Below are positions 10,310-56,055 of a DNA stretch of 64,000 nucleotides, piece by piece. Each line of letters starts with the position of its first letter. The stretch's first letter is position 1. The notes beneath the pieces are model-generated. The model was not told the DNA's origin. It was given only the letters and a program-made list of their open reading frames with translations, and made no database searches. This DNA comes from Terriglobia bacterium (lineage in GTDB: Bacteria > Acidobacteriota > Terriglobia > Terriglobales > Acidobacteriaceae): assembly GCA_041495845.1 (NCBI GenBank), contig JBGQDM010000005.1:472-64471 (forward strand), written 5' to 3'. Made by a program: the position numbers and the translations under genes.

Positions 10310-10915
10310 TCAGAGTTCTTCTAGAAAATCGTTGAGCATCCTGCGAAACAGAACTGCCATGGGCTTCCAGTCGCCCTGCATCGCCTGGGCACCCGCCGCT
10401 CCGTACGCGGGGTTGGGCCTGGGACGCAAGCGGACAAAAGGCGGCAGCCCATAACGCATTGCGAGGCTGTTGGCCCAAAGACGCGCAGTGCGGCCGTTCC
10501 CGTTGGCAAAGGGATGGATTCGCACCCACTCGGCATGCACCCAAGCAAAGAGATCGATGATGGCCGCCAGTTGGTCGGCATCAGGTTCCTGGCCGGTCGG
10601 CAGCAGCGCGTCCAACTCGGCGATCAAGGCCTGGAGTTTTGCTTCAAAGCGTGCTAGCTCCGCGGCTACATTTACCGATTCCACGCCATAATTCGCGCCG
10701 ACTCGTACTTGGAGTTTCTCAAGACCTGGTTCGCCGCGAAACGCGCCCACAAATCGCGGGTCGGGCACGTCCAAGCCATTCATAACGAGGGTTTGCCAAC
10801 GCCTTGCCGCTTCTAACGTTGGAGCCTCGCGCCGCTCCGAAGCCCGAACGATTTCCTCCAGGACGCGCGCGAGGTTCTGCCGCAACTGGGGACTGTCCTC
10901 GTCCCAGTTAGGCAC
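10310..10915 (-). CDS. Fic-family protein (putative toxin)
   Basis: Fic motif HPFANGNGRTAR, which is HxFx(D/E)GNGRxxR with Asn at the D/E position. Confidence 0.85.
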   Translation of the reverse strand: MPNWDEDSPQLRQNLARVLEEIVRASERREAPTLEAARRWQTLVMNGLDVPDPRFVGAFRGEPGLEKLQVRVGANYGVESVNVAAELARFEAKLQALIAELDALLPTGQEPDADQLAAIIDLFAWVHAEWVRIHPFANGNGRTARLWANSLAMRYGLPPFVRLRPRPNPAYGAAGAQAMQGDWKPMAVLFRRMLNDFLEEL

Positions 10916-20989: not shown

Positions 20990-21267
20990 CGTTAGGAGAC
21001 TATTGGGATCGGGCGCGGCTTTAGTCGCGCCAGCTTGGCGCGGTGAACATCTTGGGCTTCAGTGGGTGCGAGAGAACTGCTCCTTCGTCGGATGTGGTGG
21101 GCCGAGAACTGCGGATATCAGCCCCGGAGGGGCGTTTGCCAATAGCCCGGCGCTTTCAGCGCCGGGGAAAAGTGGGAACACCGAGCCAGTCCCGGAGGGA
21201 CGACTGAAATTCTCACGCACTCTTCAGCCCTACGAGTTCTAATTTTTTTGAGGATTGGAGATCAGCA

Positions 21268-41030: not shown

Positions 41031-41590
41031 GGATTGTCCGCAAAGCTAGCCGGAGGGATGGAAGTTGTCAACGGAGCGCTCGAGCAGCGGAAGCGCGGTG
41101 GTGGCCTTTCTGTCCCCGCCTCGCGCATTGGCTGAATTCGGTGGTGCGAACATTCTGCCTCCCACCCTTGCAAAAAACGCAAGGATGGGGCACCCCCAGG
41201 GTTGCTGGTGCACGCGAAATTCAAGATCAAGGGTGGGCCACCCGCCAAGGCGCAGACAATCAGCCAGCTCTGCGTCGAATACGGGCGCGGTAGGGACCGG
41301 GTGATCTCGGTGCCGTAGCCGATCGCGCCAGTGGTTGCGGAAGCGGAAGTCGCCATGGATTGTCCGCAAAGCTAGCGGTAGGGCGGGAAGTTGTCAACGG
41401 AGCAGGCTGGCAGCGGCGGGCTTCCCGCCGGCGCCTCGCGCCTTCGCTGCATTCGCGGTGCGAAGATTCTGCCTCCCGCCCTTTGCAAAGTGCGCAAAGA
41501 ACGAGGCACCCACGGGTTTGGTGGTGCAAACGAAATTCAAAATCTAAGGGCGGTCCACCCCGCCAAGAGTCAAGGGCGGTCCACCCGCCC
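40921..41590. repeat. Tandem, diverged ~326-bp duplication of the 5' end plus upstream region of the GT-C gene
   Basis: Unit A is 40921-41246 and unit B is 41247-41572, followed by a partial extra gggcggtccacccgcc. The first ~120 bp match best, and both units keep an ATG plus about 37 codons (MATSASA.TG.IG.GTEIT.SLPRPYSTQSWLIVCAL). Confidence 0.8.
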
Positions 41591-41608
41591 GTCTCGTTGA
41601 GTCCGGCT

Positions 41609-42085
41609 TCAGCGCAGCGCGGCACAGAGAGCGGTAATGTCGCCGGTGTTGAACTGATGCTTACCCTTCACCAGCGTTATTTCGCCGTTATACATGAGCA
41701 TGTACCCCGCATCGATGTTGACCACGCCTTTCCCGGGAACATTGAAGTGGAACATCAGGCCGGCATGTTTCCATAGGCCGGGCGTGTCTTGAACATTTTC
41801 AAAAAAGTTGTAGCCCTCGGTCCGACCGGTAAGGCTCTTGCCATTCGACAAGTTTGTGACCGTATCCAGAAACTCGCCGTGAATGTGGTACCGGTTTAGG
41901 GAGCCATCGGGATTCAGGTAGGACGTGATGGTGACGTTGCCGGTCCAGTTATCTGAGAAATCAAAATCGCCACAACTCATTGTGTAGACGCCACTCCAGA
42001 ATTGGGTTTCCTTATCGGGCGGGGACGCTAGCGCGACTATCTGCAGGGCGAGGATGATCACAGCAGCCACGAGTACGCGTTTCAT
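41609..42085 (-). CDS. Secreted hypothetical protein
   Basis: Clear signal peptide MKRVLVAAVIILALQIVALA. No recognisable domain. Lower GC than the surroundings. Confidence 0.5.
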   Translation of the reverse strand: MKRVLVAAVIILALQIVALASPPDKETQFWSGVYTMSCGDFDFSDNWTGNVTITSYLNPDGSLNRYHIHGEFLDTVTNLSNGKSLTGRTEGYNFFENVQDTPGLWKHAGLMFHFNVPGKGVVNIDAGYMLMYNGEITLVKGKHQFNTGDITALCAALR

Positions 42086-42172: not shown

Positions 42173-42496
42173 TTAATTCGATACGAAGGAGCGCGTCCTG
42201 TCAGTGAAATGGGTCACCTCTTGATGTGCGGTGACCGCCAAGAGCCACAGCGCAAAGCCTGGCCAGACCTTAACTGATGCAAAATCGCGATTGCACTCAT
42301 TGACCCGGTTGTGAGTGTAGTCGCCTTTTTTCACCAGCAATCCGGTGCGCTGCTCCATGGCCTCGCAGAGAAGTGCTATCAGGCTTAAGATGCTGTCCAT
42401 GGCCAAGAAAACAGGAATGAGCAATTCGTCACTCTGGATCATCACGATTCTATTGTTGGCGCTTGCCGCATGGACGTACTTTAGGTAGACCAGCAC
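42173..42496 (-). CDS. Hypothetical protein (weak call)
   Basis: Only an ORF in a lower-GC segment, with no motif. Confidence 0.2.
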   Translation of the reverse strand: MLVYLKYVHAASANNRIVMIQSDELLIPVFLAMDSILSLIALLCEAMEQRTGLLVKKGDYTHNRVNECNRDFASVKVWPGFALWLLAVTAHQEVTHFTDRTRSFVSN

Positions 42497-42603
42497 TCGC
42501 TCCCCTTGATCCGCCCGCGGGTTCTCCGCATTCCACGCACGCCCGCGCTGTTAGCTAAGTGGTAACGATGTAGCAGTTTGCACTTCTGTATGGCTATCCC
42601 CCC

Positions 42604-42617
42604 TCAGCTTCATTGAC
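42604..42617. repeat. Left target-site duplication of the casposon (tcagcttcattgac)
   Basis: Identical 14-mer at 55224-55237, each abutting the outer end of a TIR. Confidence 0.85.
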
Positions 42618-42760
42618 GGGTTGTTGTATGGCGACGGCAAAAGTGCTACACGTTACCAGTTGGTAATCGTTGGTGGGAGCCGGGGTGCGCGCGCGGGCGG
42701 AGTGAGAGCGCGCTGGCGAGTGGGGCGGGGCTCGGGCGGGTGAGAGCGGGCGCTGCGTGG
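42618..42760. repeat. Left terminal inverted repeat
   Basis: The reverse complement equals 55081-55223 at 140/143 positions (hand alignment). All mismatches are at the inner end. Confidence 0.9.
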
Positions 42761-42772
42761 TTTAATGCTGAG

Positions 42773-45700
42773 CTATGCGCCGGGCATCATTAGCGCAGGG
42801 TCCGTAACCTCGATTGTGTCCGCGCCAGCGCCTTTAGCAGAAAACACCGGAGTAAACGTGACCTCTTCTCCAACCTGCAACATCAGTTTGCCCAACCTAG
42901 ACGCCGGGCAGAAAAAACGAGGGTAATCCTTGTTCTCGATGAAGCAATATCCCGGCCTTACCGCTGCCACTCTCCCTTTGAGTCGGAGCGGCTTCACCCT
43001 ATCGGAACCTCTAGGACGAAAATACACCTTATTTGACTCGACATTAGAAAAGTTGCGTCTAGCACACTCCGCGAACACTTCCTGCGCATCACTGAACTGG
43101 CTGTTCATAAAAAGCATCCCGCCGAGCACTGCAATGTAACGTGGATCACGAAAACCGTAAAGGCTTCCGATCCGAATGGTGCTGATTGCCGTACTGTACG
43201 ATTCGCCCGTTCCTAGTAACGCAAGCGCATAAACAATGCAAGCACGGTACTCATCGGGTTCGGAAATCACTGCAGGCTTGATGACTTCTATTGTCTTTTG
43301 GGGCTCGTTCCTCTGCAAGTAGACGCGCCCCAGAACGTAGCGCGCTATGTTTCCCTCTTTGTCAGCCCGAACCGCCCGCTCTAATTCATAAATGCGCTCC
43401 GGATCGTTTCCCAAAAACTCTTGCACTTGTGCAGAAACAAGAAGTAAAGACTCGCGACTGTTGATTGACCGCAACCCTTCACTAATAATCTGTTCACATT
43501 TCGACAGGTACTCTGCCGAATCACCCTTCTCGCGCTTTGCCCAGTCCAAATACAGCGTCGCCAGGCCCGAATAGGCAAACTCGTCCTTGCTGGACATCGA
43601 CAAGCACTGCCGGAAGGACCTTTCCGCTTGAAGCAGTCTCTTTCGGCCTATTTCAACGCTAGCCGTTGTACGTGCAAGCTGCGCCAGGATCAATCCTTTT
43701 GTGTGGTGAAGAACCCGAACATCCTTACTGATTTCAATGGCGCTGTCGATCTGGCCAAGCGCCAATTCCGGCCTTCCTTCGTGCAGCAACATGCGGGCGT
43801 AATGCTGCTTGACATAGGGGCTTTGCGGGTCCTTCTTGCAGGCAGCTTCGAAAAATCTGGTTTTGCCGTCAAAACTGCTCAGGCTTGCGACGACGTTGTC
43901 AGATCGCACAAATTGTTCAAATGCGCTTTGATCTGCTCCATAGTTGAGGTTTAGCGCTTCGATTGATCGTTGAAGAAGGTTCTCTTTTTCAGCTGAATCG
44001 CCGCAACGCTCCCAAACGATTGCCGCAATAGCCCTGTGCCGCGCTCTCCCGCCGTACCGCCCGAGTGTCGAATCAATCAGATCATAGATAACAACCCCTT
44101 CGGTCTGGTTCTTTGTCTCTTCATACATTGTTGCTAGATCGCTACCCAGCAAGCTGGCCAATAAAACGTCGCGGACATACGCGCCGTGTGTGTAAAACCC
44201 GCACACGGCCAAATATAAGCGTCTGGACAGGTCGTTACCGATACCCTTAAATTCATCGATCAGAATTGCATCGAAATTATTGTCTTCCGTTGCTTCGCGA
44301 AGTGTGACCAGCAATTCTTTGCCGTGTTTGCTCTCTATTACTGCAAACTGCATGTCAGGAGTCAGGTTCGCCAGCTTGTTAAGTTCTCCGTTTTGCTTCA
44401 ACGTCTCCAACAGCCGCATTATCTCGGCATCGCTCAGGCTCTCAAGCTCGTACTCCTTAGGGAAATAACGGCCACGTGACTGCCTCCATTCGTTCTTCCT
44501 TTCTCCCATCACTAAGAACGCAGGGCTTTTCAGTCTTCTTAATCGGTCAAAAACCCTGTGGAGGTCGCGCGAATGGTCAGCCGCGTTGTCAACAAAGAAA
44601 AACTTTTTATCTTGCCCAAAAAGAGAAGCTGCGAACTCCAAGTCTCCGTCAATCACCGACGCTCCGGCCTTGTGGTAAAAAATGTGGCCCGCACGATCTG
44701 AAACCAATTGAGTCGCCAGCATGGTCAGCAGTGTTGTTGTTCCATAACCTGCCGGTCCGATAATGATGGCTGAGCCGCTAGAACTGCTGGTGCTTGTATA
44801 AAAATCTAAAAGCTGGTCATAGACTTCTTCCTGAATGTCGCGCTCAAATGGGATTTTCTTAGCAGCCAGCGTCCAGTTTGGCCGATCTCCCCTGAAAAAG
44901 GGTTTCGTGTTGGGCTGTTCACTGAAGTCCGCAGCGTTCACGTATCTCCAGTGAGCGAGCAGCCTCAGGACGGCAGTAGGATTGCGCTCGTATTCATCAG
45001 CGAGAGGGGCCGGAATCTTGTGCTTTGTTTTTCCGAGTAAGTCTATAGTATAAGCTGACTTATCCAGCACAACGGACGCAGTACCGACGAAATCCGCGAA
45101 GCTAGCATCTATCGTTTCCACGCCCTTGCGAGTCAGGATTTCGGCATTTAGAGCTTGTGTACGACGGGCGACCCTGTACGAGGGAAGGAGTGGTGATGGG
45201 TAAAATTCCTGGCGCATTTCCTCCAAGACTAGCTTCCAGTTGGGGTCACGGTTCGAGTAGCCAACGTACAAGATTGTTGAGGTTGCAAACTCCTTCTTTA
45301 GCAGTTCGAACAGCATTCGGCGTGGGTCCCGAAAGGTCACGTAGTCACTCTGGGTGACTACGATGAATGGTTTGCCGATTCCTGAGAAGCGCCCATGCAG
45401 GTGGTAAACGGGAACATCGAAGCGGGGGTCGATTGGGAATAGTTCAGGGGTGATTCCGAAGGGAACGGGCTTCAACGGAGGACTTGGGTTCAAGTTGTAA
45501 GCAGTTTCAATAACGTTATCGTAGTTTGTTGTGAAAATCGCCTTCCATCGAATTCTCGTTAGCCATTGAAAAAGTTCGTCGGGCTGGAGGTCGCCAACCT
45601 GCGATTTGATAAAGATCTCAAGCTCAGATCTACCTATCCGGAGTTCAACAATTTCAGCCACTTCCGCCAGATCATATTCGCCGCCGGTGTCAATATTGAA

Positions 45701-45883
45701 CTGTGCAGCCATGCGACGGGCCAATTCCTGCCCATCAGGTGCAGGTTTGCCTTCCTTGTCCAGAATGTGCTCCCCGAGACCTGCGCCCACGAACAATACA
45801 CAGTTCCCGGACTCCAGGGCGGTTCTCAATCCGAGCGGAACGATAACGCTTTCGCTGGCAGAGACGGAGGGTGGTGTTGCCAT
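42773..45883 (-). CDS. SIR2-like domain / STAND-type NTPase / TPR / C-terminal cold-shock-like domain protein (Avs5-like putative anti-phage defence)
   Basis: N-terminal SIR2_2 pattern (CVLFVGAGLG, IFTTNYDNVIE, VYHLHGRF). P-loop-like IIIGPAGYGTTTLL. Long helical/TPR-like C-terminal half. The last ~70 aa (KGRVAAVRPGYCFIENKDYPRFFCPAS...GEEVTF) are CSD-like. Confidence 0.78.
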   Translation of the reverse strand: MATPPSVSASESVIVPLGLRTALESGNCVLFVGAGLGEHILDKEGKPAPDGQELARRMAAQFNIDTGGEYDLAEVAEIVELRIGRSELEIFIKSQVGDLQPDELFQWLTRIRWKAIFTTNYDNVIETAYNLNPSPPLKPVPFGITPELFPIDPRFDVPVYHLHGRFSGIGKPFIVVTQSDYVTFRDPRRMLFELLKKEFATSTILYVGYSNRDPNWKLVLEEMRQEFYPSPLLPSYRVARRTQALNAEILTRKGVETIDASFADFVGTASVVLDKSAYTIDLLGKTKHKIPAPLADEYERNPTAVLRLLAHWRYVNAADFSEQPNTKPFFRGDRPNWTLAAKKIPFERDIQEEVYDQLLDFYTSTSSSSGSAIIIGPAGYGTTTLLTMLATQLVSDRAGHIFYHKAGASVIDGDLEFAASLFGQDKKFFFVDNAADHSRDLHRVFDRLRRLKSPAFLVMGERKNEWRQSRGRYFPKEYELESLSDAEIMRLLETLKQNGELNKLANLTPDMQFAVIESKHGKELLVTLREATEDNNFDAILIDEFKGIGNDLSRRLYLAVCGFYTHGAYVRDVLLASLLGSDLATMYEETKNQTEGVVIYDLIDSTLGRYGGRARHRAIAAIVWERCGDSAEKENLLQRSIEALNLNYGADQSAFEQFVRSDNVVASLSSFDGKTRFFEAACKKDPQSPYVKQHYARMLLHEGRPELALGQIDSAIEISKDVRVLHHTKGLILAQLARTTASVEIGRKRLLQAERSFRQCLSMSSKDEFAYSGLATLYLDWAKREKGDSAEYLSKCEQIISEGLRSINSRESLLLVSAQVQEFLGNDPERIYELERAVRADKEGNIARYVLGRVYLQRNEPQKTIEVIKPAVISEPDEYRACIVYALALLGTGESYSTAISTIRIGSLYGFRDPRYIAVLGGMLFMNSQFSDAQEVFAECARRNFSNVESNKVYFRPRGSDRVKPLRLKGRVAAVRPGYCFIENKDYPRFFCPASRLGKLMLQVGEEVTFTPVFSAKGAGADTIEVTDPALMMPGA

Positions 45884-45943
45884 CTATTCGCCTCAAACGG
45901 AGGATGATAGCAGAATACGCCTGGCGCGTGAGGAAGGGTCAAG

Positions 45944-47470
45944 TTAGGCTTCTTGGGGCCACAGGCTAACGAGCTGTGCCAGTGCGTGCCAGTGCCTGGG
46001 ATGCGGACGCCGCCTGCCTGCGCGGATGTCGGTCGCATAGGGGAGCGAGATGCCCAGCGTTGATGCAATTGCGGACACGGGGAAGTCTCGGAGGGCGGGC
46101 TGAATCTTTTCCTGGTATCCGCTCTCGGTCAGCCAATTTGGATGTTCTGAGGGCTGCCAGGCCTTCAGTGCGGCGGCATGACGGAGGCGGCTGGCTGAGC
46201 GTAGGGCTTCTGCCTCCGGAGTATGCGTGGCTACTCGCCCGAGCCGCGCAATCTCGATCATTCTCTTGCTGGCCTCAGCCCCGGCACACGAAGCGCAATG
46301 GATCTTTCCTTCCTTGAGTGCGACGCCGCAAGTGCGACAAATCTTCTCGGGTGCTGGAGCTGGTTTCGTGACAGGCGCGTACGCTTCGCCTCTTGCTTCG
46401 CTTCGGTGGCGCTGCGTCAAGCGCGTAGCGGGAACGCTCTTGCGCGCGGCTTTGGAAGTGGAACTCCAGAGCGCGCGAGCAACCCACTCAGCTAGTGGTG
46501 CAACGGCACGACCCCAAGTAGGCGCAGTTTCGGATAGTCGGGTGGCGAATGACCCGATGAGGCGGCAGTTGCCATCTCGCCGCTCGAAGAACCATTCCCG
46601 CTTGAGCGGTTGGCGGGTGATCCAGTCCAGCAGGAATGCGTCTACCTGAGGTCGGACCGGCTCCATGAGATCGCAAGCGAGGCTGTCGCGGTTCGGGGTG
46701 TCAACATGCAACATTCCAAGACCGGGATCGAGTCCAAGAGCCGCCGCCGCAAGGCGAGCTTCGGATTCCAACAGCCCGTAGAGGAAGTTCAACATGGCCC
46801 CGGACGGGTTCGCTGCCAGTCGCGGCGATCCCGAGAGGGGAGACTGACGGGTTCCGAAGGTTCGCCAGTGGCCAGGTACACGCGGCATGTCGTTCTTCGG
46901 AAAACTAATTGGGAGATCGCGCCACGCGGACCAGTAGACGGCACCGGCCTGGGCTTCGACCAAGCGAACTGCCGGAATGGTTTCCGCATTCGCCAGTTGA
47001 CTGCGAAGATTGGAGATCTCATCGGCGCTTTCAGAATCGAGCAGCTTTTCGCGGACGACTTTTTCCTGCCCAAGAAGTTTTTGGGAGATCAACTCCCGCG
47101 CGATGCGTTGGGCATCGCCGGAGTGAATCGCCAACGCTTGCGCGCGTCGCAGGCGGGCATCGGAAGGGCGAACGGGCCCCGTGGTGGCCAGCACCGAGCC
47201 GTCGCGTTCCAGCATTACGAAAGCTGCGTCCTGGTCGGCAAGCCAGCGCAGCGCTTCAAGTGTGATGAAGCCGTCGCTCCCAATCATGACCAGCCTCTTT
47301 AGGCCGTGATTCACGCGGGGCAAGCGAATTGTCCGGCGCTCGTCCGCGATTCCATCGTGCAAAAGTAAATGCCCGGCATGAACCTGGACGCGGATGCCGT
47401 AGCCATTCAAGACCAGCACGCCAGATTTGCGGATGGCGGAGGACTGAGGTAGGTTTTGCGAAGCCGTCAT
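45944..47470 (-). CDS. cas1: Stand-alone Cas1-family integrase (casposase) with C-terminal zinc ribbon and HTH
   Basis: Cas1 signature: VEAQAGAVYWSAW (Glu), NPSGAMLNFLYGLLESEARLAAAALGLDPGLGMLHVD (His), SLACDLMEPVRPQVD (Asp/Glu). C-terminal CRTC...CASC and an HTH-like LGISLPYATDIRAG. The start at 47470 has a GGAGAG RBS. Confidence 0.85.
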   Translation of the reverse strand: MTASQNLPQSSAIRKSGVLVLNGYGIRVQVHAGHLLLHDGIADERRTIRLPRVNHGLKRLVMIGSDGFITLEALRWLADQDAAFVMLERDGSVLATTGPVRPSDARLRRAQALAIHSGDAQRIARELISQKLLGQEKVVREKLLDSESADEISNLRSQLANAETIPAVRLVEAQAGAVYWSAWRDLPISFPKNDMPRVPGHWRTFGTRQSPLSGSPRLAANPSGAMLNFLYGLLESEARLAAAALGLDPGLGMLHVDTPNRDSLACDLMEPVRPQVDAFLLDWITRQPLKREWFFERRDGNCRLIGSFATRLSETAPTWGRAVAPLAEWVARALWSSTSKAARKSVPATRLTQRHRSEARGEAYAPVTKPAPAPEKICRTCGVALKEGKIHCASCAGAEASKRMIEIARLGRVATHTPEAEALRSASRLRHAAALKAWQPSEHPNWLTESGYQEKIQPALRDFPVSAIASTLGISLPYATDIRAGRRRPHPRHWHALAQLVSLWPQEA

Positions 47471-47555
47471 GGAGGTTTCTCTCCTTCGGCGGTCAGGGCT
47501 GTTCGTCTGCTCCAACAGGCGGGCAGCCCGTATAAACTGTTGATAAGTATACTAC

Positions 47556-47567
47556 TTAGGTACCTAA
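47556..47567. promoter_or_regulatory. Perfect 12-bp palindrome ttaggtacctaa in the divergent cas1 / HTH-polB control region
   Basis: Self-complementary 12-mer inside the 312-bp divergent intergenic region 47471-47782. Confidence 0.3.
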
Positions 47568-47782
47568 AGTACACCCATTAACACATGCCTTTCCGGAACT
47601 TGCGTCCAATCACGTCGAGGTTTATCCTTGTGTTCTGCGGTACAGGTCCTTGGCCATTAAAGAGAACCTTTGGGGTAAGAACTACCGCCTCTAGGTCTTG
47701 GACTAAAGAATTGGGCATCACTGGATAGGACAGAGCCCAGCCATCGGACACCGCCCGTGGCACTTCACGTTGAGGTGCTGCG

Positions 47783-48010
47783 GTGTCTTCAAGATCCACG
47801 ATCCCAATCCTCACAGAACACAAGATTCTTCTGAGTCGCCAGGAGGCCGCGCAGCTACTCGGCATCAGCTGGCGCATGTTGGACGAGCTCGTGAAGCGGG
47901 GCGAGATTCGCATCCGCCGCGTGGGCGGTCCCATTCGCGGTCGTGTTCTGTTTTCCAGACTTGAGCTACAGCGATTTGCGGAAGGAACTGAAACTTCGAA
48001 CAGGGGGTAA
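47783..48010 (+). CDS. Excisionase/MerR-type helix-turn-helix DNA-binding protein
   Basis: LLSRQEAAQLLGISWRMLDELVKRGEIRIRRVG is the HTH_17-like pattern. GTG start. Confidence 0.6.
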   Translation: MSSRSTIPILTEHKILLSRQEAAQLLGISWRMLDELVKRGEIRIRRVGGPIRGRVLFSRLELQRFAEGTETSNRG

Positions 48011-48016
48011 CTTCTC

Positions 48017-48562
48017 GTGGCGCGCAAACAGCGCGAGCGCCAGAAGGCCCCCAGCAAGGTTTCTTCTAGCGCCCGCAATACCAAAACTCGGCTCATTTTA
48101 CCATCCCGACTCTCCGAGCGCAGCTTCGCTGCCCGTGATCGTGCCATGCACGTCCTGGGGGATATGCGGCATGGCGCTTCGCTTTCGCGTGCTGCCCGCG
48201 ATCATGGAGTAAGCGTACGAACAATCAGACGCTACGTCGGCGGGGCGCTCTTACAAGAGCGTGCGGGCGGGAGAATCCGCGCGACCAAAAGCGACCGCTT
48301 TGTCCGCTACCTGCAACTCCCAGGCCGGCTCGGACCCATCGAACAAAGGGTTCGCGGATCAAGACAGGCTAGTGAAGCCGCGAGATACAAGGCAGCGCTC
48401 AACAGGCGCCTTCGCGGTGACCGTGGCGCGCTCGCGCCTTGGCACGGAAAGAAGATCGCGGGCATTGAACTCATAACAGACGCGGCCACTCTGAAGAGCC
48501 TCGCCGAGAGAGATCTCCTTCCTTACTCTCTCTACCGATCCCTTTCTGGCGGTGGGGCATGA
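48017..48562 (+). CDS. Hypothetical protein with HTH segment
   Basis: ASLSRAARDHGVSVRTIRRYV is an HTH-like segment. The gene is in an operon with the flanking genes, with a 4-nt overlap downstream. Confidence 0.5.
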   Translation: MARKQRERQKAPSKVSSSARNTKTRLILPSRLSERSFAARDRAMHVLGDMRHGASLSRAARDHGVSVRTIRRYVGGALLQERAGGRIRATKSDRFVRYLQLPGRLGPIEQRVRGSRQASEAARYKAALNRRLRGDRGALAPWHGKKIAGIELITDAATLKSLAERDLLPYSLYRSLSGGGA

Positions 48563-48855
48563 TCGCACTCAGCGGAGTGTCGCGTCGTTCCCGTGGGTGC
48601 TGTGTTTTCTGCGGATCGCGAAAACAACTCCAAGAGCACCATCTCGGCGGTCGCAACCACGCCCGTCACTTCACAATCACCCTCTGCCGTGAACATCACG
48701 AAGCAGTCACGCTCGCTATCACCAGAGCGGGGGTAAACATGCGCTATACCAGCGACAAAATGGAACGCTCAAGGCGCGCGCGCCAAGCCGCATACGTGTT
48801 TCTTTGGTTCCTGGATGACATCGTTTTCACACCAACCTGCGAGGAGACAGCATGA
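48559..48855 (+). CDS. HNH-like endonuclease-fold protein
   Basis: CVFCGSRKQLQEHHLGGRNHARHFTITLCREHHEAV matches the pattern CxxC...HH...N...CxxHH. Confidence 0.55.
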   Translation: MIALSGVSRRSRGCCVFCGSRKQLQEHHLGGRNHARHFTITLCREHHEAVTLAITRAGVNMRYTSDKMERSRRARQAAYVFLWFLDDIVFTPTCEETA

Positions 48856-49052
48856 TGAACAACGGGCGAGTCGAGCACGTTTTAACGCAGCGACTGGAAG
48901 ACGGCTACGTGCGAACGCTGTGCGGGAGAATCATTTTCAGGCCAAACCCTATAGAGACATACCGTGAACCAACATATTTCAGGTACAACCATCCAAATTG
49001 CCAAGACTGCTTGCGGAAGCACTTCGCCAAGACTGGAAGAAAACATGACTGA
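48852..49052 (+). CDS. Small hypothetical protein (66 aa, Cys/His-containing)
   Basis: Translationally coupled on both sides (ATGA at 48852-48855, ATGACTGA at 49045-49052). No known motif. Confidence 0.4.
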   Translation: MMNNGRVEHVLTQRLEDGYVRTLCGRIIFRPNPIETYREPTYFRYNHPNCQDCLRKHFAKTGRKHD

Positions 49053-51963
49053 CAAAACACACGATATCTTCGTGCGGGCCTTGGCGGTCACCGCGAAACA
49101 GACAACGAAGAACACTGGAAGGCCAGCTTCCGAAGACAAGCCAAAGTGGGCGGAACATGCCCTTGTGTTTGATACAGAGACACGCATCACTGCCGATCAA
49201 TCTCTTACTTTCGGCGTGTACCGGTTGTGCTCGTTGGCGAACGGAATTTACAAGTTCACCGAAGAGGGTATTTTCTATGCTGACGATCTGCCATCGAAAG
49301 AGCGGAAGGTGCTACATGCCTACGCGCAAACGGCGGTTTCAGATGCAGCATCCTTCCCGCCGCGATTCCCGCTGTATTCCCGTTCTGAGTTTATGAAACG
49401 CGTCTTCTGGCCACAGATCAAACACAAGAGTGCGCTCATCGTGGGATTCAATCTCCCTTTCGATCTGGCGCGACTCGCGCTGGACTGGAGCAGAGGCAAC
49501 AAGGGCGAATGGTCGCTCACGATGTCACGATATCCAAACGGTACCGAGAACCTAAATTACCCTCGTATTCTCATCACGCCGATTGACAGCAAGAAAGCCT
49601 TCATCCGGCTGGCAACGCCGTGGAAGCCAACGGACTGGAAGAATAACGGCCGCGGTAATTTCCTGGACCTGCGCACGCTCGGCTGGGCGCTCTTCAACAA
49701 AGCGTTTTCGCTCAAGACCCTCTGCGATGAACTCAAGACAGCACAAGAAAAGCTAAACCATGATCCGACGGGTAAGGTCACTCCCGAGGAAATCGAATAC
49801 GCCCGCCAGGACGTTCGCTGCACCGTGGACGCGCTCAACGCGCTGAAGCGGGAGTTTGATAAACACCCCATCGACCTGAAACCCTCCGATACGTACTCCC
49901 CAGCATCCGTAGCCAAAGCCTACCTGGACGAGATGGGAATCATCAGGCCAGCTGAGAAGTTCAATGTTTCTGATGAAATGCTCGGAATTACCATGCAGAG
50001 CTATTACGGAGGTCGCTCCGAAACTCGCATCCGCTGCTGTGAGGTGCCCGTCGTGCCCGTAGATTTCACCAGCGAATATCCGAGCTGTTGCGCGCTCTTA
50101 GGTCTATTCGACGTTCTCACAGCTGCGAGTGTGAGCTTTGATGACGATACCGAGAAGGTACGGGGATTTCTAAAACGCGTCACTCTCAAACGCTGTCTTG
50201 ATCCGGAATTGTGGGGGCACCTCAGGTTCTTCGCCTTGGTGCAACCTGAGAACGACATCCTGCCCGTGCGCACGATGTACAACGAAGTCACGCGAAATAT
50301 CGGGAACAACTACCTCACATCCGACACGCCGATATGGTTTGCCGGCCCCGACCTGATTGCATCCATGCTCCGCACAGGCAAAATCCCGCACATCATCCGC
50401 GCGATCCGCATGGTACCGCATGGCAAGCAGGCCGGAATGCGAAGTGTAAACCTCCGTGGCATGGTTGAAATTGATCCGTACAAGGACGATCTATTTTGTA
50501 AAGCAATCGAACAACGGAAACTGCACAAATCCGACGGATCGCTCCATTACTGGCTGAAGATCTTCGCGAACTCCATATACGGGTTTTTCGTTGAACTGAA
50601 CCCGGAAATTCAGGGCAAGCCCGCACCGCTCACAGTCTATTCGGGGGAGAAGACATTTCGGGACCACTCGGATGTCGTCGAGAATCCCGGTCGCTGGTTC
50701 TTTCCCCCGTTAGCCTCACTCATCACCTCCGGCGGCCGTCTGCTGCTCGCCATAGCAGAGTCGAATGTGGAAGAGAAGAAAGGCGCATATCTGTTCTGCG
50801 ATACGGATTCTCTCGCAATCGTAGCTTCCCAGACGGGAGGGGATCTCCGCATTCCAGGCAGTAAGGGTGTCAGGGTTCTTTCGTGGGCCGAAGTGCAGTC
50901 CATCGTTGACAAGTTCGCTGCCCTGAATCCATACGACCGGAAGCTCGTGAAAGGCTCAATCCTAAATCTTGTGAATGCAAACTACGTTGACTCAGACCCG
51001 CAAAACCCGCAGCGGCAGTTGTACGGGTACAGCATTGCAGCGAAGCGCTATGCCCTTTACGAGAGGATAGGCAAGAACGACATCAAGATCGTCGATCCGA
51101 AAGCGCATGGCATTGGGTTCTTGTATCCACCGAAAGACTCGCCGAAAGACTGGAAAGAAGATGTTCCGCAATGGATTTACGAAATGTGGGACTACGTGCT
51201 GCGTGGCGCTCTCAAGCTAAAACGCAAATCCCCGTCTTGGCTGGATATTCCACAAATGATGCGCCTGACGATCACTACGTACAACGTTTTGAAAATGCTC
51301 GGACAATGGGAAGACGCTCGCCCGTACAACTTCCTGTTCTTGCCGATGGTCGACCCAACCTTTGGTTACGCGTTTTACCGACGGGCAAACGACAAAATTC
51401 TGCTGGTCGCCCCATTTTCGTCTAAGCAGGAGCGCTGGTTTGCAACGGAGTGTGTGAATATTCACAACGGCAAGAAGTACCGAATGGTGGACTGCACCAA
51501 AGAAAAGAAGCCGCCGTACAACGTGGTCTTTCCTTCGCAATTCGCCCGCCTGGTAATCGAATACCAGGAGCATCCCGAGGCGAAGAGCCTTGCGCCTGAT
51601 GGCACGCCGTGCAAGGCGCAGACGCGTGGGCTTCTACGGCGGGCGCACATAACAGCCGGTGAGTTTCGCTATGTGGGCAAAGAAACAGATCGCAAATGGG
51701 AAGAAGGCGACGACGTCAGTGTGTTGGAATTCAGCACTACCGAATACGGCAGGGCGAAAAGCGTAGTCGCTGACCCTTCGATACGCGATGAAATTCGGAC
51801 GATCGGCGTCCGCAAGACGATGGAATTGACGAAAATGAGTCAGCACACGATAGAAAAGCTGGTTCGTGGCGAAGCCGTGAAGCGCAAAACTCGCGAGCAC
51901 GTACTGAAAGCACTTCAAGCATGCAAAGTGCTCATGGAGTTTGCGAACCAAAACCGCAGATAG
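49045..51963 (+). CDS. polB: Family-B DNA polymerase with 3'-5' exonuclease domain
   Basis: Exo I LVFDTET, Exo II GFNLPFDLARL, Exo III YARQDVRCT, YxGG (SYYGGRSE), motif A DFTSEYPS, motif B KIFANSIYGF, motif C LFCDTDSLA, KxY (AAKRYALY). The start was moved to the ATG at 49045. Confidence 0.9.
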   Translation: MTDKTHDIFVRALAVTAKQTTKNTGRPASEDKPKWAEHALVFDTETRITADQSLTFGVYRLCSLANGIYKFTEEGIFYADDLPSKERKVLHAYAQTAVSDAASFPPRFPLYSRSEFMKRVFWPQIKHKSALIVGFNLPFDLARLALDWSRGNKGEWSLTMSRYPNGTENLNYPRILITPIDSKKAFIRLATPWKPTDWKNNGRGNFLDLRTLGWALFNKAFSLKTLCDELKTAQEKLNHDPTGKVTPEEIEYARQDVRCTVDALNALKREFDKHPIDLKPSDTYSPASVAKAYLDEMGIIRPAEKFNVSDEMLGITMQSYYGGRSETRIRCCEVPVVPVDFTSEYPSCCALLGLFDVLTAASVSFDDDTEKVRGFLKRVTLKRCLDPELWGHLRFFALVQPENDILPVRTMYNEVTRNIGNNYLTSDTPIWFAGPDLIASMLRTGKIPHIIRAIRMVPHGKQAGMRSVNLRGMVEIDPYKDDLFCKAIEQRKLHKSDGSLHYWLKIFANSIYGFFVELNPEIQGKPAPLTVYSGEKTFRDHSDVVENPGRWFFPPLASLITSGGRLLLAIAESNVEEKKGAYLFCDTDSLAIVASQTGGDLRIPGSKGVRVLSWAEVQSIVDKFAALNPYDRKLVKGSILNLVNANYVDSDPQNPQRQLYGYSIAAKRYALYERIGKNDIKIVDPKAHGIGFLYPPKDSPKDWKEDVPQWIYEMWDYVLRGALKLKRKSPSWLDIPQMMRLTITTYNVLKMLGQWEDARPYNFLFLPMVDPTFGYAFYRRANDKILLVAPFSSKQERWFATECVNIHNGKKYRMVDCTKEKKPPYNVVFPSQFARLVIEYQEHPEAKSLAPDGTPCKAQTRGLLRRAHITAGEFRYVGKETDRKWEEGDDVSVLEFSTTEYGRAKSVVADPSIRDEIRTIGVRKTMELTKMSQHTIEKLVRGEAVKRKTREHVLKALQACKVLMEFANQNRR

Positions 51964-52174
51964 TCTGTAGTTATATCTCGCAGGACTATTCTTTCGCGGG
52001 AAATGAATAACAATGGAAAGGCTCTCCCGCTTTATTAGTTAGCTTGGTAAATTTATCACCTTTTATAGAGAAACCAACGCCCGTTGCTACATTCAGCTGG
52101 ATCGAAAGAAGTCTATATTCACGCTGTCCCTGTGCCCCTGATCCGAGGAGCATGGTCGAGCCGGGAATGTCTTC

Positions 52175-52204
52175 CGCGCTGGCGGGGGCGGGGCTCGGGC
52201 GGGG
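52175..52204. repeat. Internal partial copy of the inner TIR segment (same orientation as left TIR)
   Basis: cgcgctggcg-ggggcggggctcgggcggg matches 42709-42740 at 29 nt, apart from a 3-nt indel. Confidence 0.6.
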
Positions 52205-52216
52205 AAGGTTCTAAGT

Positions 52217-52250
52217 CGCCACGGATTGTACGGATGAACACGGATTGAAG
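52217..52250. repeat. cacggat-type dispersed repeat copy inside the casposon
   Basis: cgccacggattgtacggatgaacacggattgaag matches the chromosomal copies at 8177-8207 and 21801-21836. Confidence 0.6.
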
Positions 52251-52253
52251 AAA

Positions 52254-52285
52254 GGCCACCAGGAATGGTGGCCGTTTCCTTTTTG
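52254..52285 (+). terminator. Rho-independent terminator downstream of the polB operon
   Basis: ggccacca-ggaa-tggtggcc followed by gtttcctttttg. Confidence 0.5.
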
Positions 52286-52371
52286 TAGATTGCAGAGGTC
52301 GGGGTTGACTGAATCGGCGAGGGCGGTGAGCGGCTGTGATCCACTCCGCTGCCGCCCCGCCGATGGCTGGT

Positions 52372-52854
52372 TTAGTGGAGAGTGCAGCTCCCCTGATTGA
52401 GGGAGTCGAAGACCCCGGCCAGGCCGGTCATCAAGTTGCGATTGTCGGTGGCGATGGCGTCGTCAATCGTGGTGTTGGTCTTATTGGTGAACGGGGCCAA
52501 AGCGTTGCAGGCCGCAGGACTTGAGTTCCCGGCATTGGCCAGTCGCACGATGGCCTGGCGGAGCAGGATGACCTCAGCGCCGGCAAAGGTGCTGCCGTCA
52601 CCACAGACGGTGGTGGGCGAAAGCAGCAGTTGCAAGAAGGTCAGCGCGCCCACGCAGGCGTCAACGTTCGGAAAGACCGAACTCACCAAGGTGTCCTTAT
52701 TGAAAACATTGTTGGCGCAGGGACCGCTGTTGAGGAACTGGGAGTGGTTTTTGTAAAAACCAACGGTGCAGTGCTGGTTCACATTGGCAGACGCGGGCAG
52801 CGCGACGCCAAGGATGAAGAGGAAGCAAAGCGTCAGCAAGATCCGGTTTTTCAT
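52372..52854 (-). CDS. Secreted cysteine-rich hypothetical protein (casposon cargo)
   Basis: Signal peptide MKNRILLTLCFLFILGVALPASA. Seven Cys in the mature part. No known domain. Confidence 0.55.
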   Translation of the reverse strand: MKNRILLTLCFLFILGVALPASANVNQHCTVGFYKNHSQFLNSGPCANNVFNKDTLVSSVFPNVDACVGALTFLQLLLSPTTVCGDGSTFAGAEVILLRQAIVRLANAGNSSPAACNALAPFTNKTNTTIDDAIATDNRNLMTGLAGVFDSLNQGSCTLH

Positions 52855-53389
52855 TTTTTAGAAGCTCCTGGAAGAGTATTTTCGATTTACAAAATGTCGA
52901 AGGACGCTGGGGCGCGGTTGCATCTACGGCGAGGGCCTACATTGGCGGGGATTATGCAACGGATGGGAAGGGCTGTCAACGTGCAGATTGTTGCACAGGG
53001 AAAGCTGGGCGGGGGGGTCGCGCCCAATGGCGTTGCTTTTGCAGGGGGTTGCGGGGAGGGAGACGCTCATCCCTGAATTCCCGCAGGAGCTGCTTTAGGG
53101 ACTCAATTGTTGTCTTGGAGTCTGAATCCATGCGAGTAATTCTGCCACACTGATGCGGGCCGTGCGCCGAAAACAGCTCGCCAGCAATACTTCCAGACTT
53201 TCGCGGAGGACGCTCTACCCCCAGATGCCACTAGCCGACGCGCTGAAATCGAGGGTGAGAGCACACAGCGAATGCAGCCAGGTTGGATTCTCTTCAACGC
53301 ATTGCGACCTGAGTACCTAGCTCCCTCGGCCCCGTGAGTAGACCACGGGCGTGACGGAAAAACCCTATGCCTTGCGTCGACCATTGTTG

Positions 53390-54994
53390 CTACGGTGGCA
53401 CTTGCTTGAAACGCAGCCGCCCGATGCGAGAGCCCCAGAAACCCCCGTCGATAACCTTTTCGTTCACAAACCAAGCGTTGCCTTGCGGATCAACGGCGAC
53501 AGAGGAATAGTCGCCCCACCGTTGGCCAAAGGCACCGTCAAAACTATTAGTGATGCACGTCGAACTGGTAAAAACGGGGATGCCATTCCCGAGGCTCCCA
53601 ACTGGAGCAGACGCGCGTTTTCCCGCAAATCGGACATCCGCATTGCGATTGAGGCTTGTATCGATCGAAGTCCATGTCACGTAAATGTTGTTATCCGCAT
53701 CCGCTGCAATTGAGGCATTGAAATCATTACTTGTACTCGCGCGGGCGAAAAATATCCCGCTATCGACGAGTGTGTGCGTGCTGGTGTCGATCTTGTAAAA
53801 CTTGGGAGTAGCCAGGCCGCTGACATTGATGGTATGGGTTTGATAAAGGAACCTTCCCACTTGGGTGCTAGCATTCGTAAACCGAGCGTCAAATGTTTCG
53901 ACCAAGTTCCTGGGGGCATCGCCGCAGGGGGAGGGTTGTGGCGCATTGGGCGGAATCGTATACGGAGCCACTGGAACCTCGAAGGGCCCTGTCACGTCAG
54001 CAGCGGATGGACGACTGGAGTCTGTCAGCGCGTATAGATAGAGGACGTTATTCTCTGGAGTCGCGGCAATCAAATATGTGTTCGGGTTTTGGTCTGACAC
54101 GATAGGTGGCGCCAGAGTGGCCTGGAGTCCGGAAAAACGCGCGATCGAAAACTCCATCCCGTTATAGAGCCTCGCCTTAGCGATCGTGAACAGCTCCGCA
54201 CCAGCGAAATTCGCGGACAAAGGGTTGCCCGTGATGATGATGGAGTCCTGATCCATACCGAGTTGCGGGAAATCCAAAAACGCATTGTTGTCCAAGGCGC
54301 TGACTTCGATGTTGTAGATCCAATATGGGCCAGTCGCATCGCCTGTTTTTGAAACCGCCACGAACATGGGTTGTACAAAATCCGGCGGGAAAGCATAACT
54401 GATCGATATAACAACCCAGCGATCCCAGATCGGATCGTGCAGGACACGCGAGTCGGCGGTAAACGAGGTGTTTCCGTAAAAAGCTGCTAGCCCACTCTCG
54501 AAAAGCAATGCGCCCGACGCCTTGTCGTATATGTCAATAGCATGGTTCGTGACCTCGACGTATTGAGTGTTCCCCGCAGCTCCATGGGTGTCCGGTGGAT
54601 GAGCCGCCGCATAATGTTGATCTGTCCCGTCAAAATTGAGAGAGGCATCAAGGACAACGCCGCCACCAGTTGCCAGCGGAACCGCACTGGGTAGGGAACG
54701 AGGGGTTCGTTTCATTGAACGAGCGGCGGCCTTCAGCGCTCGGTATTTCTCCAAAGGAATCGTCAGGTGGTTGTGCAGCTCGATCTCCGGTCCGGGCTTT
54801 GCATAGGTTTGCGCGTCTTTACGCATCTGGTTCTGATCGCGCGACACTGCCGCCGCGACACTCATCGTTACTCTACGCACCTTCCGATCATTGACCTGGC
54901 CGGCCGCGAAGACGTTCGCTCGAATGCAAGTCAAAAGCAGAACAATAGCAATCGCAGCCCAACTCGGGGCGATCCGGGGAACCAGTCTTGACAT
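53390..54994 (-). CDS. Secreted hypothetical protein, possibly beta-propeller-like (casposon cargo)
   Basis: Signal/TM segment APSWAAIAIVLLLTCIRANVFA. Long ORF, with the start placed at the ATG at 54994. No recognised catalytic motif. Confidence 0.55.
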   Translation of the reverse strand: MSRLVPRIAPSWAAIAIVLLLTCIRANVFAAGQVNDRKVRRVTMSVAAAVSRDQNQMRKDAQTYAKPGPEIELHNHLTIPLEKYRALKAAARSMKRTPRSLPSAVPLATGGGVVLDASLNFDGTDQHYAAAHPPDTHGAAGNTQYVEVTNHAIDIYDKASGALLFESGLAAFYGNTSFTADSRVLHDPIWDRWVVISISYAFPPDFVQPMFVAVSKTGDATGPYWIYNIEVSALDNNAFLDFPQLGMDQDSIIITGNPLSANFAGAELFTIAKARLYNGMEFSIARFSGLQATLAPPIVSDQNPNTYLIAATPENNVLYLYALTDSSRPSAADVTGPFEVPVAPYTIPPNAPQPSPCGDAPRNLVETFDARFTNASTQVGRFLYQTHTINVSGLATPKFYKIDTSTHTLVDSGIFFARASTSNDFNASIAADADNNIYVTWTSIDTSLNRNADVRFAGKRASAPVGSLGNGIPVFTSSTCITNSFDGAFGQRWGDYSSVAVDPQGNAWFVNEKVIDGGFWGSRIGRLRFKQVPP

Positions 54995-55080
54995 ATGCTT
55001 CACCTCATACTGGCCGGACATGCGGAGGGAAACCGTGGAGATTCTGCACCCTCGCCTGGTCACTGTCAAGTCCTCGGGGA

Positions 55081-55223
55081 CCGCGCAGCGCCCGCTCTTA
55101 CTCGCCCGAGCCCCGCCCCACTCGCCAGCGCGCTCTCACTCCGCCCGCGCGCGCACCCCGGCTCCCACCAACGATTACCAACTGGTAACGTGTAGCACTT
55201 TTGCCGTCGCCATACAACAACCC
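55081..55223. repeat. Right terminal inverted repeat
   Basis: Reverse complement of 42618-42760 (140/143). Confidence 0.9.
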
Positions 55224-55237
55224 TCAGCTTCATTGAC
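55224..55237. repeat. Right target-site duplication (tcagcttcattgac)
   Basis: Identical to 42604-42617. Confidence 0.85.
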
Positions 55238-55262
55238 CATTGAAATTGCGGCTCACTATACT
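55233..55262 (+). promoter_or_regulatory. Putative sigma70 promoter of the LytTR regulator (TTGACC-N18-TATACT)
   Basis: -35 at 55233-55238, of which five of six bases lie in the TSD. -10 at 55257-55262. The ATG at 55273 implies a very short leader. Confidence 0.45.
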
Positions 55263-55272
55263 CAGAACTGCC

Positions 55273-56055
55273 ATGCCGATCTCTGCCGTCATTGTGGATG
55301 ACGAACAACTTGCGCGCGACGAACTGGCTTACCTGCTTAAAGGGATTGACGACCTGAGCGTGGTGGCGCAGGGGAAGAACGGGTTGGAGGCGATCCAACT
55401 CATCAAAGAGCACAATCCTGATCTCGTGTTTCTGGATGTGCAGATGCCCGGGCTGGATGGGTTTGGCGTGCTCAAGAAATTGCTGGACAAGAAAATTCAC
55501 CTGCCGCGGGTGGTATTTGCCACGGCGTTTGATCAGTACGCGGTGAAGGCGTTTGAAGTGAACGCGGTGGACTACCTGCTGAAACCGTTTGATAAGAAGC
55601 GGGTGGGCCAGGCGGTGCAGAGAGCGCGCGAGCAGATGGCGGCGGGCGGGTCGTCGCACGAGCGACTGGACACGCTGGTGCGCATGCTGGAGACGCAGAA
55701 GCAGCCGGGAGCGGCGAAGTTGCTGCTGAAAGCGGGCGGGCGCATGCTGCTGGTGGACCAGAAAGATGTCTGCTTTGCCTCGATTGAAGATGGCGTGATT
55801 TCCGTGGTGATGGCGGGACCGGCCGGCCTGGAAGGACATTCCAATTGCCGCACGCTGGAAGAGTTGCAGGAGACGCTGGACGGGAGCCTGTTCTGGCGGG
55901 CGCATCGGTCGTTCCTGGTGAACATTAATCGGATCAAAGAAGTGGTGCCGTGGTTTAAGAGTTCGTACCAGTTGCGGATGGATGATAAGAAGCAGTCGGA
56001 AATTCCCGTGAGCCGGGCGCAGACGAAACGGTTGCGGGAGTTGTTTGGGTTGTGA
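55273..56055 (+). CDS. LytR/AlgR-family response regulator (receiver + LytTR DNA-binding domain)
   Basis: AVIVDDEQLARDEL, DLVFLDVQMPGLDG, and RAHRSFLVNINRIKEV in the LytTR domain. No adjacent histidine kinase. Confidence 0.88.
   Translation: MPISAVIVDDEQLARDELAYLLKGIDDLSVVAQGKNGLEAIQLIKEHNPDLVFLDVQMPGLDGFGVLKKLLDKKIHLPRVVFATAFDQYAVKAFEVNAVDYLLKPFDKKRVGQAVQRAREQMAAGGSSHERLDTLVRMLETQKQPGAAKLLLKAGGRMLLVDQKDVCFASIEDGVISVVMAGPAGLEGHSNCRTLEELQETLDGSLFWRAHRSFLVNINRIKEVVPWFKSSYQLRMDDKKQSEIPVSRAQTKRLRELFGL

Follow-up and report, generated by a model that had tools for sequence, protein, structure and literature searches.

Where does a transposon whose integrase belongs to the Cas1 family settle in a bacterial chromosome, and what becomes of the gene beside which it lands? 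This question is raised by a casposon of 12,606 bp, located at positions 42618-55223 of a stretch of 64,000 nucleotides (hereafter the window) from a Terriglobia bacterium of the Acidobacteriota (assembly GCA_041495845.1, contig JBGQDM010000005.1). The element is structurally intact and is inserted in an intergenic region between divergent genes, in an Acidobacteriota context, where the G+C content is about 0.60 in the flanks and only 0.50-0.57 within the element. Comparison with its relatives gives good confidence that it is an intact, AceAut-C1-like casposon and that its clade takes sigma70 promoters as target, with integration within the -35 hexamer and growth of arrays at the same place. 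About 70 related insertions suggest that entry into the -35 box is precise.

The boundaries of the element are sharply defined. Its terminal inverted repeats (TIRs) measure 144 nt, the left one lying at 42618-42761 on the plus strand, with the start GGGTTGTTGTATGGCGACGGCAAAAGTGC, and the right one at 55080-55223 on the minus strand. A repeat finder returned this pair as the one outstanding inverted repeat of the window, and direct comparison with the reverse complement gives 141 identities in 144 positions (98%), the three mismatches (TIR positions 122, 125 and 141) being confined to the inner ends. A preliminary description of the locus had given 143 bp, 140 identities and the same location of the mismatches, and the repeat is now longer by one base only. 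Directly outside the TIRs stand two perfect copies of a target-site duplication (TSD) of 14 bp, TCAGCTTCATTGAC, at 42604-42617 and 55224-55237 (plus strand). They are the only exact copies in the 64 kb, which bears out the perfect direct repeat described before, and further copies with up to three mismatches are no more frequent in the window than in shuffled sequence. The target had alternatively been put at 17 bp, with an adjoining ccc counted in. The length of 14 bp stands, being found also in 29 related elements, while the ccc is made of TIR ends: that of the right TIR on one side and that of a neighbouring relic TIR on the other.

The last five bases of the right TSD copy are the first five of a -35 hexamer. 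A promoter scan predicts here a sigma70-type promoter, TTGACC-N18-TATACT (55233-55262, plus strand), with a score of 10 out of 12, upstream of a gene (55273-56055) that encodes a response regulator with Response_reg and LytTR domains and whose ATG, at 55273, follows 10 nt after the predicted -10 box. Only six motifs of the form TTGAC-N17-19-TAnnnT occur in the whole window, mostly just upstream of genes. A target in a tRNA or other non-coding RNA was considered and rejected: no tRNA gene is present in the window, and the sole Rfam match, Acido-Lenti-1, is far from the element.

The same arrangement is seen in the relatives. A scan with one genome per species returned 116 of them, and 79 loci, designated below by L numbers where needed, were analysed; thirty-odd elements were delimited by their TIRs and 14-bp duplication before any motif was assumed. 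As read, the duplications have the form GTCAAAC... or, in the opposite orientation, ...GTTTGAC. Oriented alike, the TSDs of 29 delimited elements are 14 bp of the type N9+TTGAC, and an independent set of 84 junctions on metagenome contigs displays the same pattern. When the promoter-side junctions from genomes and metagenomes are pooled (n = 73), 18 abut another TIR and the other 55 represent 41 distinct flank classes. A TAnnnT sequence follows the hexamer at a distance of 16-18 nt in 39 of these 41 classes (17 nt in 24, 18 nt in 14 and 16 nt in one). The -35 bases are conserved (T in 39 classes, T in 39, G in 39, A in 37 and C in 40), and the -10 box reads TA(a/t)A(c/a)T. In control host flanks, such a -10 box accompanies 13 of all 270 TTGAC sites; when sites are separated by location, it accompanies 6 of 43 between genes and 8 of 301 within coding sequence (Fisher p = 4e-15 against the former). 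Because 39 of 41 classes stand against 6 of 43 controls, the elements are taken to sit within sigma70-type -35 boxes and to regenerate them.

The genes downstream of these sites, of housekeeping kind, begin 2-250 nt away and have the same direction as the promoter. Pfam assigns them, for example, to a class-I aminoacyl-tRNA synthetase, NuoB, ribosomal protein L21, a Ser/Thr kinase and a RodZ-like protein. The promoter of the class-I synthetase, whose N-terminus is ValRS-like, is a hot spot: TTGACCCTTCTTTTCTCGCGCCTGTAAGAT and its variants are occupied in at least eight genomes by elements with five TIR starts (L015, L018, L025, L031, L044, L045, L047 and L076; also L109, L156, L157 and L166). 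Insertions at L099, L128, L135, L136, L143 and L147 use the -35 variants TTGCC or TTGCT and still show a -10 box of the TAnnnT type at promoter spacing, so the last base or two of TTGAC is not strictly needed.

The contact with promoters could be indirect. The casposase might read only TTGAC (or GTTTGAC), the association arising later as insertions into genes are purged and those into -35 boxes prove harmless. This explanation, which appears unlikely, agrees with the fact that the nearly invariant positions are the five TSD-terminal bases only, and with a -10 box that shows the TAnnnT degeneracy and the 17/18-nt tolerance of functional promoters, as selection would give. If it were correct, however, intergenic TTGAC sites outside promoters should be tolerated too, whereas the -10 box is found at 39 of 41 occupied sites and at 6 of 43 controls; the intergenic control thus argues against selection alone. 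It also has to face the occupation of one synthetase promoter, in at least eight genomes, by elements of five TIR types, and the requirement of characterised casposases for about 15-30 bp of flank beyond the TSD.

Several observations weigh against a promoter-targeting, AceAut-C1-like casposon as the identity of the element. The metagenome junctions were chosen by requiring GTCAA with at most one mismatch, so the conservation of the -35 in that set is in part a product of the selection; the -10 test does not depend on this choice. Orthologous promoters of related genomes account for some of the 41 flank classes, which lowers the number of independent genes to about 25-30, and the target promoters are consensus predictions. 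Both 17 nt and 18 nt are frequent spacer lengths, a mixture that fits promoter function or recognition mediated by RNA polymerase better than a rigid read-out by the casposase. The published TSDs of the family-3 casposons NitAL212-C1 and StrAlb-C1 do not contain TTGAC, and the target rule is therefore specific to the clade and not a property of the family. As to the enzyme itself, the top solved structure for the element's Cas1 is the M. mazei casposase 6OPM, both with the single sequence and with the clade profile, yet it is only slightly ahead of the CRISPR Cas1 of A. fulgidus (116 vs 109.5 bits). Lastly, neither an empty site nor a second copy of this element was found.

The proposed promoter targeting by the clade is accompanied by signs of repeated insertion. 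In the window, a relic solo-TIR of a second, older casposon abuts the left TSD on the promoter-distal side (42440-42603, minus strand, recognized by alignment, its left limit being approximate). Its reverse complement starts GGGGGGATAGCCATACAGAAGTGCAAACTGCTACATCGTTACC and aligns with the element's own TIR; compared with the TIR of L078 it scores 25, while shuffled controls score 12 or less. No partner arm of the relic is present in the window, and a search for a third, older TSD copy with up to three mismatches gave none beyond chance. The layout of the window is relic, duplication, intact element, duplication, promoter and LytTR gene. Among the relatives, the promoter-distal flank is the TIR end of another casposon at 13 of 30 genome sites, as scored against shuffles, and at 13-17 of 29 metagenome sites; on the promoter side it is another element's TIR in the 18 of 73 junctions already mentioned. 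L059 and L065 are neighbours on one chromosome with a single shared TSD between them. In Methanosarcina casposons, both tandem insertions and solo-TIRs have been documented; the literature examined does not report them for bacterial casposons.

Two small minus-strand open reading frames (ORFs), at 41609-42085 (158 aa, with a signal peptide) and 42173-42496 (107 aa), occupy the space between the relic and a divergent glycosyltransferase operon. No family match was obtained for either, nor any homologue in the 79 related loci, and they could be cargo left behind by the decayed casposon. In the same region, a tandem duplication of about 326 bp (40960-41626, 86% identical) spans the first ~70 nt of a PMT_2-like gene, a promoter-like TTGACAACTTCC...TAGCTT and ~200 nt upstream, so that the promoter-like motif is present twice, at 41071-41043 and 41397-41369 on the minus strand.

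A mechanism can be proposed by analogy with characterised enzymes. The M. mazei casposase requires a 14-bp target with a conserved CGCA end together with some 30 bp of flank, that of A. boonei requires the TSD and about 15 bp more, and the C-terminal HTH is essential and suspected to read the flank (PMC6977970). The geometry of the clade matches that of the M. mazei casposase: the TSD terminates in TTGAC, and the promoter spacer and -10 box take the place of the flank. The casposase, made of Cas1 core, zinc ribbon and HTH, would join the 3' ends of the GGG-initiated TIRs to two target phosphates with a 14-bp stagger. One cut would fall between positions 5 and 6 of the -35 box (TTGAC/N) and the other 14 bp upstream in non-conserved sequence, after which gap repair would produce the 14-bp duplication. 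The element would be copied by its own family-B DNA polymerase (PolB) of the CDTDS type, and its HNH and HTH proteins might help in the handling of ends or target. Duplication would restore the -35/-10 core beside the host gene, the element landing directly upstream. The regenerated promoter-proximal copy would be the only complete target, the same promoter could be hit again, and repeated hits would generate tandem arrays in which decay reduces the distal members to solo-TIR relics. That the restored proximal copy stays the sole full target would explain both the repeated hits and the distal relics.

The promoter could be sought by either of two routes, a read-out of the -35 and -10 boxes by the HTH and zinc ribbon of the casposase or a recruitment to promoter-bound RNA polymerase holoenzyme. 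An HTH resembling sigma-factor region 4 was considered as the reader of the -35 box; the HTH matches actually obtained are of transposase or Cro/C1 type. The broader proposal, namely that the clade is a bacterial transposon family specifically seeking core sigma70 promoters, with insertion in the -35 box and promoter-proximal polar arrays, is cautiously favoured.

The element had been described at the outset as recent and probably still mobile. The identity of its TIRs and TSDs and its intact genes speak for this; the proposed search for an empty site and for other copies yielded neither. The identical element is found at the identical site in two NCBI assemblies and in JGI metagenomes. In an exact-protein look-up of the flanking LytTR protein, all contigs were occupied or broken at the TIR. 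A scan of metagenome contigs with 24 nt of TSD and flank gave no match, in a collection evidently devoid of the source samples, for which reason the absence of empty sites there is uninformative.

It could be argued from these results that the copy is a fixed island, domesticated or decaying, no longer mobile and conserved at its site in the lineage, which appears improbable. The missing empty site would fit, as would the fact that every public contig with the identical LytTR protein carries the element or breaks at its end, and an internal TIR-like fragment suggests past rearrangement. Such an island is difficult to reconcile with TIRs that are 98% identical over 144 nt, a perfect TSD and core ORFs that are intact with their catalytic and polymerase motifs; moreover, the contigs at hand derive from only a few samples, apparently of a single population, and these samples are not in the metagenome collection searched, so that the absence of an empty site carries no information. 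The internal fragment (52175-52207, plus strand) is about 90% identical to TIR positions 92-123 and sits exactly at the border between PolB and the core genes and the right-hand cargo, which hints that this cargo was joined through recombination between tandem elements.

The segment 42618-55223 is recognised as a casposon by its long TIRs and 14-bp TSD, by a solo Cas1 accompanied by PolB, HNH and HTH genes, and by the lack of another recombinase; these are the defining features open to a test in silico, and their presence is in line with the first reading of the locus. The casposase gene lies on the minus strand (45944-47470; longest ORF to 47515) and encodes a protein of 508 aa with a Cas1 core followed by a C-terminal zinc ribbon and HTH, according to Pfam, NCBIfam and alignment. 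Its start is M16 of the longest ORF, as deduced from the starts of homologues in an alignment of 32 relatives. The protein matches Pfam Cas_Cas1 at 2e-39 and TIGR00287 at 2.5e-28 (99 bits against a cutoff of 71.7), and it is far under the cutoffs of all CRISPR-subtype Cas1 models in NCBIfam. Residues E187, H270, D272 and E285 do not vary among 32 clade members, their match to the E/H/D triad of CRISPR Cas1 being made by position in the Pfam match and not by structure. The zinc-ribbon residues C393, C396, C407 and C410 are nearly invariant, and the C-terminal HTH is conserved, in the 32 relatives.

The other core genes lie on the plus strand. A conserved HTH protein of 181 aa (48017-48562), with weak HTH_23, HTH_29 and IS21-type matches, occupies the same position in most related loci. 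It is followed by an HNH nuclease of 98 aa (48559-48855), identified by the pattern CxxC..HH..N..CxxHH in its translation and by PHROG HNH matches, and by the polymerase (999 aa, 48964-51963). In PolB the motifs ExoI (FDTET), ExoII (NLPFD), ExoIII (YARQD) and YxGG were located, together with motif A (DFTSEYP), motif B (KIFANSIYG), TSGGR (TxxGR), motif C (CDTDS) and KRY (KxY). Profile matches are weak (Pfam DNA_pol_B_2 8e-5, PHROG DNA polymerase 4e-11, phi29 polymerase 0.008) and are to polymerases of phi29-like and organellar type. CDTDS is the name-giving signature of the PolB group that contains the A. boonei casposon polymerase (PMC7544198). This motif would suit a PolB of the family 2/3 type, as opposed to the protein-primed type of family 1; the weak profile matches do not bear it out. 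An ORF of 189 aa in public records (47578-48147) lies in the divergent Cas1/HTH intergenic region, overlaps the HTH gene and has no match; it is probably spurious. Among the element's ORFs of at least 95 aa, searches in Pfam, NCBIfam and PADLOC found no recombinase or transposase other than Cas1.

Profiles and motif location thus confirm the preliminary inventory of a Cas1 integrase, a PolB with all Exo and Pol motifs, and HNH-like and HTH genes; in the profile searches that had been recommended as a check, Cas_Cas1 responds strongly, DNA_pol_B_2 weakly and HNH through PHROG. The reported absence of CRISPR components is also maintained, with no CRISPR array detected in the window by TRF or Rfam and no cas2 or other cas gene in precomputed Pfam tables covering about 2.5-62.8 kb of it. 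That the Cas1 gene is instead a remnant or unusual CRISPR-Cas adaptation module, the repeats being coincidental or those of another element, is hardly credible, since the name 'CRISPR-associated endonuclease Cas1' in public records and nearly equal profile scores for A. fulgidus Cas1 and casposase are outweighed by the lack of cas2, other cas genes and arrays across the window, by scores far below every subtype cutoff, and by the linkage of Cas1 to PolB, HNH and HTH within TIRs and TSDs in about 70 independent loci scattered over different chromosomal sites. Pipolins, for their part, integrate by means of a tyrosine recombinase and have boundaries of direct repeats of the att type. A pipolin was rejected here, the element being bounded by inverted repeats and a TSD, having no tyrosine recombinase and possessing Cas1. 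Pipolins have been characterised as defence islands, that is, PolB-encoding integrative elements (also called piPolB elements) with variable cargo including defence genes (PMC11551731).

On its sequence features, the casposon is provisionally filed as bacterial family 3 of the AceAut-C1-like kind. Family-3 casposons, which are bacterial, carry HNH and a conserved HTH gene and are all intergenic (PMC4046053, PMC4779613). The bacterial host, the intergenic site and the HNH and HTH genes agree here, the HTH gene being a putative counterpart of that of family 2. Further resemblance to AceAut-C1 is found in the TSD of 14-15 bp and in a Cas1 of about 520 aa (521 aa in AceAut-C1) whose C-terminus bears both the zinc-binding and the HTH domains (PMC4046053). 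Of the Cas1 fragments published, that of AceAut-C1 matches best, with 38-39% identity over the two legible blocks of the published alignment; in the machine-read text of that alignment, HenMar-C1, StrAlb-C1 and the family-2 MetBur blocks reach 24-31%. AceAut-C1 differs in its TIRs of 602 bp, against 144 bp here, in its host phylum and in the modest identity of ~38% over the legible blocks. NitAL212-C1, another family-3 member, shares a 14-bp TSD and TIRs starting GGGGTAT, as in many members of the clade. The TSDs of NitAL212-C1 and StrAlb-C1, AGCCGGTACTGCCC and CCCCCCCCCGTATGAGG, are those without TTGAC; the Cas1 of the former has another domain order and that of the latter has no extra domains.

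The family-2 casposases of M. mazei and A. boonei likewise integrate with a 14-bp stagger (PMC6977970, PMC6614799, PMC4779613). Their TSD end carries the short conserved motif CGCA where TTGAC is found here, and 15-30 bp of adjoining flank is needed. Also shared are the C-terminal HTH of the casposase, the HNH and HTH genes, a CDTDS-type PolB (A. boonei) and tandem insertions with solo-TIRs at reused sites. In contrast, family-2 hosts are archaeal, and insertion is into the 3' ends of tRNA genes or into intergenic sites that share CGCA, not into promoters.

Parallels exist with CRISPR adaptation, in which Cas1-Cas2 acts at the leader-repeat junction. In both cases a Cas1-family integrase has one-sided flank specificity and a ruler-like second cut, the flank-proximal unit is hit again to give a polar array, and the flank contains a promoter. 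The differences are that no Cas2 is involved here, that the units are transposons of 13-19 kb instead of spacers, and that the promoter reads away from the array. More distant systems use a landmark in a similar manner. Tn7 is directed by TnsD to attTn7 at the 3' end of glmS, and the retroelement Ty3 is tethered by TFIIIB at Pol III start sites; as in the clade, gene disruption is avoided by means of a conserved functional landmark next to a gene. No bacterial DNA transposon is known to target the -35 hexamer, and the searchable literature contained nothing relevant on promoter targeting by casposons or on transposons specific for this hexamer.

The clade is very large and apparently undescribed. 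The 79 loci belong nearly all to metagenome-assembled genomes (MAGs) of Acidobacteriota (Terriglobia, Bryobacterales and others), with Cas1 proteins 48-67% identical, and the divergent core of Cas1 and HTH-(HNH)-PolB is kept in about 70 of them. PolB was found in only eight loci with a strict regular expression for motif B, an expression too strict for PolB to be counted in that way. A word-indexed search gave 120 Cas1 protein clusters at 61% identity or more among those listed, and an exhaustive search gave 1,210 clusters (50% identity) at E<=1e-30, with at least 150 at E<=1e-81, mostly full-length (~500-540 aa). Among the matches listed, more than 120 contigs of soil and peat metagenomes contain a 20-nt TIR core, and no plasmid relative was found at E<=1e-20. 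The searchable literature yielded no description of casposons in Acidobacteria or MAGs. The clade differs from described casposons in host phylum and abundance, in its proposed promoter-core target and in its bacterial arrays. An undescribed variant had been suspected from the cargo and the host lineage of the element; the suspicion holds for other reasons, namely the large Acidobacteriota clade, the promoter sites and the relic at the left TSD.

Smaller forms of the element also occur. In L136 (1047-3189) and L156 (750-2986), miniature elements of 2.1-2.2 kb with the same TIR core and 14-bp duplications are inserted at promoter-like sites; that of L136 retains a remnant of the PolB C-terminus and a 271-aa ORF only. 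They look like non-autonomous deletion derivatives. L016 (contig CAVXKJ010000003.1), binned as 'Candidatus Micrarchaeota archaeon', is a clade member whose Cas1 is 64% identical to that of the window, which reflects either a binning error or transfer.

About half of the element had been described as cargo, consisting of a SIR2-STAND defence gene and two genes for secreted proteins. The proportion is correct and typical of the clade, whose delimited elements measure 13-19 kb with 7-10 kb of variable genes, and the content is supported by Pfam and PADLOC matches and by signal peptides. On the left, a minus-strand gene (42773-45883) encodes a protein of 1036 aa with SIR2, STAND NTPase and TPR domains (Pfam SIR2_2 5.5e-18, nSTAND_NTPase5 4e-29, and TPR). 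Its SIR2 domain is nearest to the ThsA-type SIR2 of PADLOC (3.7e-24), and the gene is a candidate for anti-phage defence. On the right, also on the minus strand, are a small secreted protein of 160 aa (52372-52854), whose translation shows the signal peptide MKNRILLTLCFLFILGVALPASA, and a secreted protein of 534 aa in public records (53390-54994; longest ORF to 55069), with an N-terminal signal peptide in its translation. Neither has a family match in Pfam, NCBIfam or PADLOC, and the three cargo genes of the window are absent from all 79 related loci.

Elsewhere in the clade, 78 cargo proteins with lengths from 330 aa upwards were examined. In Pfam they match, among others, RHS-repeat proteins, Schlafen-type helicases, nested DDE transposases, AbiEii-like ATPases, kinases, resolvases and methylases, and the PADLOC matches include HEC-01, AbiO, Nhi, AriA, AbiL, PD-T4-6 and mad genes. 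Judged by these matches, the cargo of the clade is variable and often related to defence, a pattern that the predicted SIR2-STAND-TPR gene of the window fits. The reference set of 2024 comprises 48 casposons, mostly archaeal and with few defence genes (PMC11551731), whereas the present clade repeatedly carries cargo matching PADLOC.

The rest of the window is housekeeping chromosome, with DnaK/DnaJ, ScpAB, SucCD, PurA and GlmS-like genes. The flank also contains a BrnT/BrnA toxin-antitoxin pair (~6395-6935) and a gene with a Fic domain (~10310-10915), at positions converted from the gene table of L211. The Acido-Lenti-1 small RNA (21120-21166, minus strand; 40.5 bits against a gathering score of 37) supports an Acidobacteriota origin.

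The target rule is simple, in that a 14-bp duplication ends in TTGAC and TAnnnT follows 17-18 nt on. It makes flank reading by casposase and Cas1 testable, and it connects integration with a 'leader' that contains a promoter and with the polar growth of arrays. Insertion that spares the promoter core is a safe-haven strategy not found described for bacterial DNA transposons, and it could serve promoter-proximal gene delivery. The clade also provides many bacterial casposases for biochemistry. Soil surveys in which cas1 is counted as a marker of CRISPR-Cas (e.g. PMC7305122) may be counting these transposons of Acidobacteria. With RHS toxins and many PADLOC-matching genes in their cargo, casposons may be an unrecognised vehicle of defence and competition genes in soil. 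An ancestry of the CRISPR adaptation machinery among casposons has been proposed, and a clade whose diverse members number in the hundreds, in soil bacteria that are abundant, changes the casposon census. If the clade does seek core promoters and build polar arrays beside them, it would represent a living analogue of the leader-directed growth of CRISPR arrays and a bacterial counterpart of promoter targeting of the Ty3 type.

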